From the NCBI RefSeq assembly GCF_003334335.1, contig NZ_QOWQ01000084.1: a stretch of DNA of 3,487 nt. One strand, written 5' to 3'. Below the pieces are notes generated by a model, which searched no databases, was not told where the DNA came from, and saw only the letters and a program-made list of their open reading frames with translations. Within the stretch, counting starts at the first letter, position 1. Each line of letters opens with the position of its first letter. A program made the position numbers and the translations under genes. Shown here piece by piece: positions 1 to 3,487 of this stretch. The stretch comes from Escherichia coli (GTDB lineage Bacteria; Pseudomonadota; Gammaproteobacteria; Enterobacterales; Enterobacteriaceae).

Positions 1-977
1 GTCAGAAATATACGGCCGGCAAGGTGTGGAGCTGAGCCGTTCACTGCTGTCGGGCTGGGTGGATGCATGCTGCCGGCAGTTGTCTCCGCTGGAAGAGGCG
101 CTTCATGGCTATGTGCTGACTGACGGTAAGCTCCATGCTGATGACACGCCTATCCCGGTGCTGTTGCCAGGCAATAAGAAAACGAAGACCGGGCGGTTAT
201 GGACCTACGTTCGTGACGACCGTAACGCCGGGTCAACGCTGGCGCCGGCGGTGTGGTTCGCTTACAGCCCGGACAGAAAAGGCATCCATCCGCAGACCCA
301 TCTTGCGGGGTTCAGTGGTGTACTGCAGGCGGATGCATACGCCGGGTTCAACGAGCTGTACCGGGATGGCCGGATAACGGAAGCCGCCTGTTGGGCTCAC
401 GCCCGCCGTAAAATCCACGATGTGCACGTTCGCACCCCGTCAGCCCTGACGGAGGAAGCGCTGAAACGGATCGGCGAACTGTACGCCATCGAGGCAGAGA
501 TAAGGGGAATGACGGCGGAGCAGCGCCTTGCCGAACGTCAGTTGAAAACGAAACCGCTGCTGAAATCCCTGGAAAGCTGGCTGCGTGAAAAGATGAAAAC
601 CCTGTCGCGACACTCAGAACTGGCGAAAGCGTTCGCATACGCCCTGAACCAGTGGCCGGCGCTGACGTACTATGCAGATGATGGCTGGGCTGAGACGGAC
701 AATAACATCGCTGAAAATGCGTTGCGGATGGTCAGTCTGGGCCGCAAAAACTACCTGTTCTTCGGTTCGGATCATGGAGGAGAGCGGGGAGCGCTGCTGT
801 ACAGCCTGATCGGGACGTGCAAACTGAACGGAGTGGAGCCAGAAAGCTACCTCCGCTATGTCCTTGACGTCATAGCCGACTGGCCGATAAACCGGGTCGG
901 CGAACTGCTCCCCTGGCGCGTAGCACTGCCGACTGAATAACACATCCCCGTCAATACGGTTCTTGCTGCACGCTTAC
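1..977 (+). mobile_element. IS66-family insertion sequence, right (3') end; inferred terminus near 977
   Basis: Transposase gene ends at 940. The minus-strand reading of 962-977 is 5'-GTAAGCGTGCAGCAAG, and IS66-family ends are recalled to begin 5'-GTAAGCG. The flanking minus-strand gene appears interrupted exactly here. The boundary is inferred and could be off by a few bp. Confidence 0.65.
2..940 (+). CDS. IS66-family transposase, C-terminal portion (5' end outside the window)
   Basis: Reading frame is open from position 2 with no upstream stop, so the gene is truncated by the window edge; stop TAA at 938-940. The C-terminal sequence ...[52 protein letters not shown]...ELLPW matches the conserved C-terminal signature I recall for IS66-family transposases. 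The ORF track's GTG at 26 is probably not the real start. Confidence 0.88.
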
Positions 978-1164
978 CCTTCTGTTGCTCACTCAGGGCA
1001 TGTAAATCATGCTCAAACCACGCCCCCTGAGCATCTGTCTGCAGAATCAACCGGCCATGACAGGAAAGGCAGAAACAATGCCGGATATTTCTGCTGAGCG
1101 CAGAGTCGGCACTGATAATGTGCTCACCCGGCGTGATCCCCAGCCCCGTTTTTATACCGTTCAT
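978..1164 (-). pseudogene. N-terminal fragment (~62 codons) of a second zinc-ribbon protein, paralogous to the 1161-1544 gene, apparently disrupted by the IS66 insertion
   Basis: ATG at 1164-1162 overlaps the TGA of the upstream gene (ATGA coupling). The product MNGIKTGLGITPGEHIISADSALSRNIRHCFCLSCHGRLILQTDAQGAWFEHDLHALSEQQK shares a C-x2-C-(14-15 residues)-WFEH motif with the upstream protein. The computed ORF (856-1164) continues into IS66 sequence, which is taken to be a fortuitous read-through. Confidence 0.45.
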
Positions 1165-1544
1165 TCTGCTACCCCCTCCTCACTGAAACGCCCGGTCTGG
1201 CAGTGTGTGCAGTACTGCTCCCCATAATAATCGTGGTGACATTGCCTGCAGTACCAGCTGGCTTTACGTACCACGGGTAAGGCATCCGGGACGAATTGCT
1301 GCAGACGTTTAATCAACCGTATTTCTCTGCGTTCCGGCCTGACATAAGGACATTGCTGCGCGTGCTCCGTCAGCCCGTCGTCAGTGTGTTCAAACCAGGG
1401 CCGTTCGGTGTCGTATTGCGGGTGGTATCTGAGTGCACTGCCGCAAAGGTGGCAGGTGTAGTGGGCATAAGGAGCAGTCTGTGCGGTACGGGCACCGATC
1501 AGACGTCCGTTGCCATCAAGTGCGAGAAAAGATTTTGCGTACAT
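1161..1544 (-). CDS. Small double zinc-ribbon protein (127 aa) with CoiA-N-terminal-like CxxC...WFEH motif
   Basis: ATG at 1544 with GAGGA about 10 nt upstream on the minus strand. N-terminal module YAKSFLALDGNGRLIGA...CHLCGSALRYHPQYDTERPWFEH resembles the N-terminal zinc ribbon of CoiA-like proteins (CPxC...HFAH). C-terminal module CRQCHHDYYGEQYCTHC is a second CxxC-x9-CxxC knuckle pair. No nuclease domain is present. Confidence 0.6.
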   Translation of the reverse strand: MYAKSFLALDGNGRLIGARTAQTAPYAHYTCHLCGSALRYHPQYDTERPWFEHTDDGLTEHAQQCPYVRPERREIRLIKRLQQFVPDALPVVRKASWYCRQCHHDYYGEQYCTHCQTGRFSEEGVAE

Positions 1545-1710: not shown

Positions 1711-2280
1711 TCAGCCACGACTGCAGCCAAAATTGCGCTCACCGGTGCCGTAAGCTTTGGTACTCTCCTTCGCCAGATAGTCAGCACGCTCCAGCACCTG
1801 CTGAAAGCCGGTGTCATCATCGCGTTCCAGCCACACCGCCGGCCTGACCGGAAAATGTGCCAGCGTGTCATAACGTCCGGCATCCACTCCCAGGGCACTG
1901 CACCACGCCTGTTTAATCATCCCGGCCAGTGATCCCGGAGCGCGGTAATCGCCGGCACGACACCAGGTATCCCGGTTGACCAGCAGCATCAGGTGATAGT
2001 GTTTTTTACCTTTGCACTCCCCAAACTCCCGGGCCCAGACGTAATGCAGGGTTGTGGGATGCACGCGTTTACCTTCCCGATGCTTACGTTTCTGGTAAGC
2101 GTCGATTCGGGCTTTCAGGGCATTGATGAAGCGGGATATCACAGCTGCGTCCGTTGCTGCCGGTACATCCGGGAGACGCAGGTCAACCCGCAATGCCGTC
2201 AGGCGGGGATGAACATTCAGTGCGTGCCGCACCGTCTCACGAATACGTTGCTGCCAGAAGGGGTTGTATTTGTAGGTCAT
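1711..2280 (-). CDS. HUH-motif rolling-circle Rep-like protein, YagK/YfjJ (Inovirus Gp2-like) family (189 aa)
   Basis: ATG at 2280 preceded by GGAGAT (revcomp of 2287-2292); stop TGA at 1711-1713. Product starts MTYKYNPFWQQRIRETVRHALNVHPRLTALRVDLRLPD, as I recall for YagK/YfjJ cryptic-prophage proteins. It contains HYHLMLL (HUH motif 2) and ADYLAKESTKAY (YxxK-type motif 3). The track's extension to 2316 lacks an ATG or RBS and covers the hairpin, so 2280 is the preferred start. Confidence 0.7.
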   Translation of the reverse strand: MTYKYNPFWQQRIRETVRHALNVHPRLTALRVDLRLPDVPAATDAAVISRFINALKARIDAYQKRKHREGKRVHPTTLHYVWAREFGECKGKKHYHLMLLVNRDTWCRAGDYRAPGSLAGMIKQAWCSALGVDAGRYDTLAHFPVRPAVWLERDDDTGFQQVLERADYLAKESTKAYGTGERNFGCSRG

Positions 2281-2829: not shown

Positions 2830-3220
2830 TCAGCCCCGACAAATACGAGTCCCCTTCAGAAGATACAGGCCGGTAATGCCTGAACGCCTGCCCCTCTGTA
2901 CACCATTCCCTTTTGATTTCGAATTCTTTGTTGCCGTTATACTGCTTAATGTTCCCGATCTTCCGGTGCACAGATAACACCGGAGTCATCGTAGCGCGGA
3001 TTCAAGATTCAGGTGACATATTTCCAGACGGAAGCCGGCACGCGATCGTAAAGTTTGTTCATTGTCAGTTCTGCCAGCCGGTGATCGACCGCAGAGTTAA
3101 AGGCTTCCAGCTCCGCAGGGGTAAGTTTATAACGTGTGTGGGAAATCACTTTTTCCAGCGTCTCCCGGGATGAACAACGACGGAACTGCTCTGGTTTTAA
3201 CTTCCATTCGTCTCTCGTTA

Positions 3221-3487
<267 letters not shown>

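Follow-up and report, generated by a model that had tools for sequence, protein, structure and literature searches.

Classic members of the IS66 family, such as IS66 and IS679, contain three open reading frames encoding TnpA, TnpB and a DDE transposase, and imperfect terminal inverted repeats (IRs) beginning with GTAAGCG have been described for members of the family (PMC12888890). An 8-bp duplication of the target site is a further trait of the family. Two related elements are of direct relevance to the locus described here. ISEc8, represented by copies from O157:H7 strains whose transposase carries the PGAP product name 'IS66-like element ISEc8 family transposase', is 2442 bp long, has the gene order tnpA-tnpB-tnpC and is flanked by 8-bp duplications. 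For ISEc22 a length of 2454 bp is given (PMC5001619, Table 2). Both names are used here on the basis of PGAP product names and element lengths and not of ISfinder reference sequences. IS-mediated adjacent deletions and recombination between IS elements are known from Escherichia coli islands, and leave joints between unrelated fragments that lack a target duplication.

We analysed a stretch of 3487 bases of E. coli island DNA, referred to as the window, which is 99.9% identical over its full length to several complete genomes. It differs at two bases from the genome of strain G1/2 (NZ_CP060083.1), and sequence outside the window was read in that genome (locus L001, in which position 8001 corresponds to window base 1). 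The features discussed below are listed in Table 1.

Table 1. Positions of the IS end, the junction and the adjoining island genes in the window
Feature	Position	Strand	Basis
3' part of tnpC, IS66-family DDE transposase	2-940	+	NF033517, Pfam, annotation
Crossover interval of the mosaic IS	109-114	+	ISEc8-type site ends at 108, ISEc22-type begins at 115
Right terminal inverted repeat (IRR), ending in ...GCACGCTTAC	948-977	+	Match to left IR, homology break
8 bp CCTTCTGT where the target-site duplication is expected	978-985		Left flank of the same copy is AAATATCC
5' remnant of the gene for a DUF7828 and Zn_ribbon_11 protein, codons 1-62 of 141	979-1164	-	Intact allele, PGAP pseudogene
Intact upstream neighbour, 127-aa putative zinc-ribbon protein	1161-1544	-	ORF list, annotation in L001, L002 and L003
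Inovirus Gp2/YagK-YfjJ family gene, intact, first gene of the module	1711-2280	-	Annotation, phrog_25019

The right end of an IS66-family element

Window positions 1-977 are the right end of an IS66-family insertion sequence, confirming a preliminary description of the same DNA that was made without database searches. The assignment to the family is borne out by the transposase. A single open frame of 312 amino acids (2-937), followed by a TAA stop codon (938-940), represents the last 312 of the 512 codons of tnpC. This frame matches the NCBIfam profile NF033517 ('IS66 family transposase') with 334 bits (cut-off 180, E = 9e-100) over positions 111-385 of the 387 profile positions, and contains the Pfam domains DDE_Tnp_IS66 (PF03050, E = 4e-93) and DDE_Tnp_IS66_C (PF13817, E = 1e-16). 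In the G1/2 genome the same gene is annotated as 'tnpC: IS66 family transposase'.

The preliminary description had recognized the terminus by a GTAAGCG-type motif. The reverse complement CGCTTAC is indeed present at 971-977, 37 bp past the tnpC stop codon. The window contains three occurrences of the 7-mer in either orientation (259-265, 971-977 and 2095-2101 on the minus strand), compared to 0.38 expected by chance, and because of these three occurrences the motif alone is no proof of a terminus. A BLAST search of 5,426 complete E. coli genomes with a query spanning the junction placed the similarity break exactly at 977/978: matches that cover only the IS end at window position 977, and IS-less loci begin at 978. 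Moreover, 11 other copies of the same or closely related elements (L004-L008, L010 and L016-L020) have GTAAGCG...CGCTTAC termini and are bounded by perfect 8-bp direct repeats at 11 different targets. The homology break and the duplication-bounded termini of the sister copies together establish both the coordinates 1-977 and the orientation as a right end; neither another coordinate for the terminus nor another transposase family was found. No RNA family was found in the window with Rfam, and scanning for promoters revealed no sigma-70-like promoter reading outwards at the IS end.

The complete element, read in the G1/2 genome, is 2442 bp long (L001 6536-8977; NZ_CP060083.1, 811591-814032). 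The preliminary description had advised a search upstream for the remaining IS66 genes and the left IR, and all of these are present in L001. The genes tnpA (L001 6607-7008) and tnpB (L001 7005-7352) lie to the left of the window and are intact by annotation, as is tnpC with its 512 codons. The left IR, which starts at L001 6536, matches the right IR at 8 of the first 8, 19 of the first 22 and 23 of the first 30 positions. With its IS66-type DDE transposase, tnpA and tnpB upstream of tnpC, and imperfect IRs beginning with GTAAGCG, the element shows nothing at the family level that differs from the classic members. Only the 8-bp target-site duplication is missing from the window copy. Because the 11 sister copies with the same termini do have this duplication, its absence belongs to the history of this copy, which has undergone a secondary rearrangement, and is not a property of the element.

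A mosaic of ISEc8-type and ISEc22-type sequence

The element was aligned with three O157-type 'ISEc8 family' copies (2442 bp each, each flanked by a duplication) and with an 'ISEc22 family' copy (L010), the length of which agrees with the 2454 bp given for ISEc22. The alignment contains 487 diagnostic sites. Of the first 371 sites 370 are ISEc8-type, and of the next 116 sites 115 are ISEc22-type, with the switch located between element positions 1573 and 1580 (Table 1). The left 1573 bp of the element are ISEc8-type and the right 863 bp are ISEc22-type.

The comparison with each of the two relatives reflects this division. The left IR is identical to that of ISEc8, and identity to ISEc8 is 99-100% over element positions 1-1573, falls to 82-89% over positions 1574-2442 and amounts to 94.7% over the full length; the right IR differs, ending in ...ACGGTTCTTGCTGCACGCTTAC in the window element and in ...ACGGCCCTCGCTGTACGCTTAC in ISEc8. 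The ISEc22-type copy, on the other hand, is 99-100% identical over window positions 115-977, right IR included, and 307 of the C-terminal 313 TnpC positions (312 residues and the stop) match. Over the left 1573 bp, identity to this copy is only about 42-94% per 100-bp block, and the left IR and the total length differ. Whole-element identity to the ISEc22-type copy is 84.7%, with only the right 863 bp reaching about 100%. By the ISfinder convention, isoforms of one element share at least about 95% nucleotide identity. Judged from the alignment, the window element does not appear to be ISEc22 as a named element, for which collinear identity over the whole element would be expected; with respect to ISEc8, the 94.7% is a borderline value. 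PGAP assigns its TnpC to neither of the two named families. A name based on the window alone would wrongly be ISEc22, because nearly all IS sequence in the window is ISEc22-type whereas the whole element is a mosaic. IS66-family elements of E. coli evidently recombine with each other, and names given from a partial window can consequently be wrong.

The same crossover is found in seven further copies (L004, L014 and L016-L020). Six of these mosaic copies (L004 and L016-L020) lie on IncF and IncI plasmids, each at a site of its own and bounded by a perfect 8-bp duplication, and full-length mosaic copies with at least 99% identity are present in 310 plasmid records. As the same crossover recurs at six other sites with perfect duplications, the mosaic already existed as a mobile unit in its own right, and it is an established and widespread mobile lineage. 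Which of the three compared lineages would be called the recombinant is an argument of parsimony. A different ISEc8/ISEc22 mosaic was found in L005 (NZ_CP087565.1, 41962-44403), where the crossover lies further 3' and the copy has its own perfect 8-bp duplication. This second mosaic shows that ISEc8 and ISEc22 have recombined on more than one occasion.

The truncated DUF7828 gene and its operon

The preliminary description had expected that both the junction and the disrupted gene could be defined within the window, and this proved to be the case: a gene encoding a DUF7828/zinc-ribbon protein is cut after codon 62. The intact 141-codon allele is present in the IS-less loci L002 (3762-4187) and L003, and its product contains a DUF7828 domain (residues 4-85) and a Zn_ribbon_11 domain (residues 88-123) in Pfam searches. 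The window copy aligns identically to the intact protein through K62, after which the truncated frame continues for 40 unrelated codons into the IS and stops at 856-858. In the PGAP annotation the remnant is a pseudogene, described as 'putative zinc ribbon protein, missing C-terminus'. With the IS end placed at 977 and the truncation after codon 62, this part of the island is precisely annotated.

The DUF7828 gene is the last gene of a three-gene operon on the minus strand, in which it is preceded by the Gp2-family gene and the gene for the 127-aa zinc-ribbon protein. Both upstream genes are intact, and the stop codon of the 127-aa gene overlaps the start of the truncated gene. The Gp2-family protein matches phrog_25019 (E = 4.5e-41). 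Four proteins, the target and three neighbouring island proteins, gave no match in PADLOC, and neither the target nor its 127-aa neighbour had a match in PHROGs. For the Gp2-family protein and a 65-aa protein, PHROGs returned only families of unknown function.

The 65-aa protein is encoded on the plus strand at 2479-2676 and is annotated as hypothetical; it has a CxxC...CxxC zinc-ribbon motif followed by a hydrophobic helix, and its PHROG matches are weak. An hha-like gene on the minus strand (3009-3206) has a 14-bp deletion just past its start compared to the intact 70-aa allele (L002 6040-6252) and is a pseudogene according to PGAP. A paralogous island in an O25b:H4 genome (L013, NZ_CP015085.1) carries an ISEc8 copy with an internal tnpC deletion just downstream of an intact zinc-ribbon gene pair. 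As this ISEc8 copy adjoins the module in L013, IS66-family elements recur beside it.

A junction without target duplication and its likely history

The window copy has no duplication: its left flank is AAATATCC and its right flank CCTTCTGT. The 19.5-kb locus does not contain the distal 239 bp of the target gene. Synthetic queries that joined the distal target and CCTTCTGT to either the ISEc8-type or the ISEc22-type left IR were each covered in 0 of the 5,426 genomes. An inversion was rejected, as the reciprocal junction occurs in none of the 5,426 genomes, which argues for loss of DNA. Of the insertion site announced in the preliminary description, the surviving junction at 977 stands; a simple insertion does not, with the 8-bp duplication missing and the rest of the target gone.

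On its left the copy adjoins 90 bp from the interior of a type I restriction R-subunit gene (hsdR; L001 6446-6535), a gene that is intact in the pheV islands of other strains. Natural adjacency of hsdR and the zinc-ribbon module was considered and rejected, since the two are not neighbours in two IS-free pheV islands. In the IS-free islands the lut operon and the pheV integrase come after hsdR. To the left of the hsdR fragment, which is all that separates the two IS elements, lies a second IS66-family element of 2536 bp (L001 3910-6445), and this element is also without a duplication, its flanks being GATACATG (left) and CGATAAAT (right). A deletion of approximately L001 5901-7388 has joined both IS elements to each other in strain Eco-15 (L014); the IS-IS joint has a 16-bp overlap, and the right junction is kept. 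Together, these arrangements show repeated IS-driven erosion at the locus.

Because the duplication is missing and the lost half of the target is found next to the IS in 0 of the 5,426 genomes, the junction is the joint of a deletion or rearrangement and not a clean insertion. The locus is an IS-eroded mosaic, in an island region that formerly carried a type I restriction system, and 977/978 is one surviving junction of a rearranged copy. It resembles the products of IS-mediated adjacent deletion and inter-IS recombination in E. coli islands in joining unrelated fragments without a duplication, and the likeness extends to the state of the neighbouring IS and to the additional IS-IS deletion in Eco-15. 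It differs from the known cases in that the precursor arrangement was not recovered here, and the specific mechanism is one that we deduce.

We consider it highly probable that the window contains the end of a 2442-bp mosaic IS66-family element whose right IR abuts the DUF7828 gene and one flank of which was replaced at a later time. An already formed mosaic copy would have transposed into the region. Subsequently an event mediated by the IS, which may have been a deletion or else homologous recombination with another IS copy, would have exchanged the DNA on one side and eliminated the remainder of the target, so that the flanks no longer match, the left one being an hsdR remnant and the right one the truncated DUF7828 gene. 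The resulting joint would have been inherited by about 13% of sequenced E. coli. We infer the order of these events, since the ancestral state, in which the IS, bounded by a duplication, would interrupt an otherwise intact target, was found in none of the 5,426 complete genomes, and likewise the type of the secondary rearrangement.

Alternatively, the element may first have inserted in hsdR, duplicating AAATATCC, in which case 977/978 would be the endpoint of a deletion caused by intramolecular transposition of the right end: the right IS end would have transposed into the DUF7828 gene and removed the 3' end of hsdR together with the DNA in between. This course of events, which we regard as possible though doubtful, would give the same final structure (no duplication, hsdR as left flank, distal target lost), and the position of the joint precisely at the IR tip is what is expected of a transposase-made joint rather than of illegitimate recombination. 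Insertion into the DUF7828 gene followed by replacement of the left flank fits the present data just as well, however, and a first insertion in hsdR needs a large or inter-island deletion, given what follows hsdR in the islands that lack the IS. It also calls on the transposition chemistry of the IS66 family, which to our knowledge is poorly characterized.

The locus could also be the birthplace of the mosaic, if two elements of like orientation, an ISEc8 within hsdR and an ISEc22 within the DUF7828 gene, had recombined within tnpC at the crossover interval, deleting the intervening DNA and creating the chimeric IS and its non-matching flanks in one step, after which the mosaic moved to plasmids. 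A single event would account for the chimeric sequence as well as for the absent duplication. The arrangement of the flanks is also the one required, with hsdR beside the ISEc8-type half and the DUF7828 gene beside the ISEc22-type half, and the identical 6-bp crossover interval in all mosaic copies examined points to a single origin. Nevertheless we think this improbable, and less likely than transposition of a ready-made mosaic followed by flank replacement: the mosaic is present at many other sites, of which at least six were checked and all have the duplication; with full-length copies in 310 plasmid records, any one site is a priori an unlikely origin; a pure ISEc22 at the DUF7828 site was found in no genome, and neither was an ISEc8 at the AAATATCC site of hsdR, for which a synthetic query of the ISEc8 right IR, AAATATCC and the downstream part of hsdR gave no match, the ISEc8 copies that lie within hsdR in eight genomes being about 200 bp away; and copies without a duplication commonly arise by secondary deletion, the neighbouring IS being equally defective. 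If it were true, recombination between two IS66-family elements would have deleted a restriction-modification gene region and made a new chimeric IS, one that is competent for transposition and that later spread to IncF and IncI plasmids.

The exact junction was found by BLAST in 701 of the 5,426 complete E. coli genomes (about 13%). It is a stable marker in these genomes and might be used to type lineages or islands. Annotations of the feature already exist in hundreds of public genomes and mechanistically nothing about it is new; the mosaic structure and the lack of a duplication usefully refine its description but represent well-known kinds of IS behaviour.

Two further observations concern the surroundings of the junction. 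Compared to Eco-15, which has the same IS junction, an 823-bp stretch of the window in the region of the zinc-ribbon genes (878-1700) is only about 95% identical and the wider locus about 98.6%. The lower identity of this stretch points to gene conversion or to recombination between paralogous modules of islands. At its other end, the window contains the left end of an IS3-family element of 1257 bp (L001 11411-12667), which starts at position 3411 within the stretch 3408-3487. This element has the ends TGTAGTGG...CCACTACA and a 3-bp target duplication (AGT), and an empty-site allele occurs in Eco-15 as well as in many genomes that match the window only as far as 3411. Unlike the IS66-family copy, the IS3-family element is a clean insertion.
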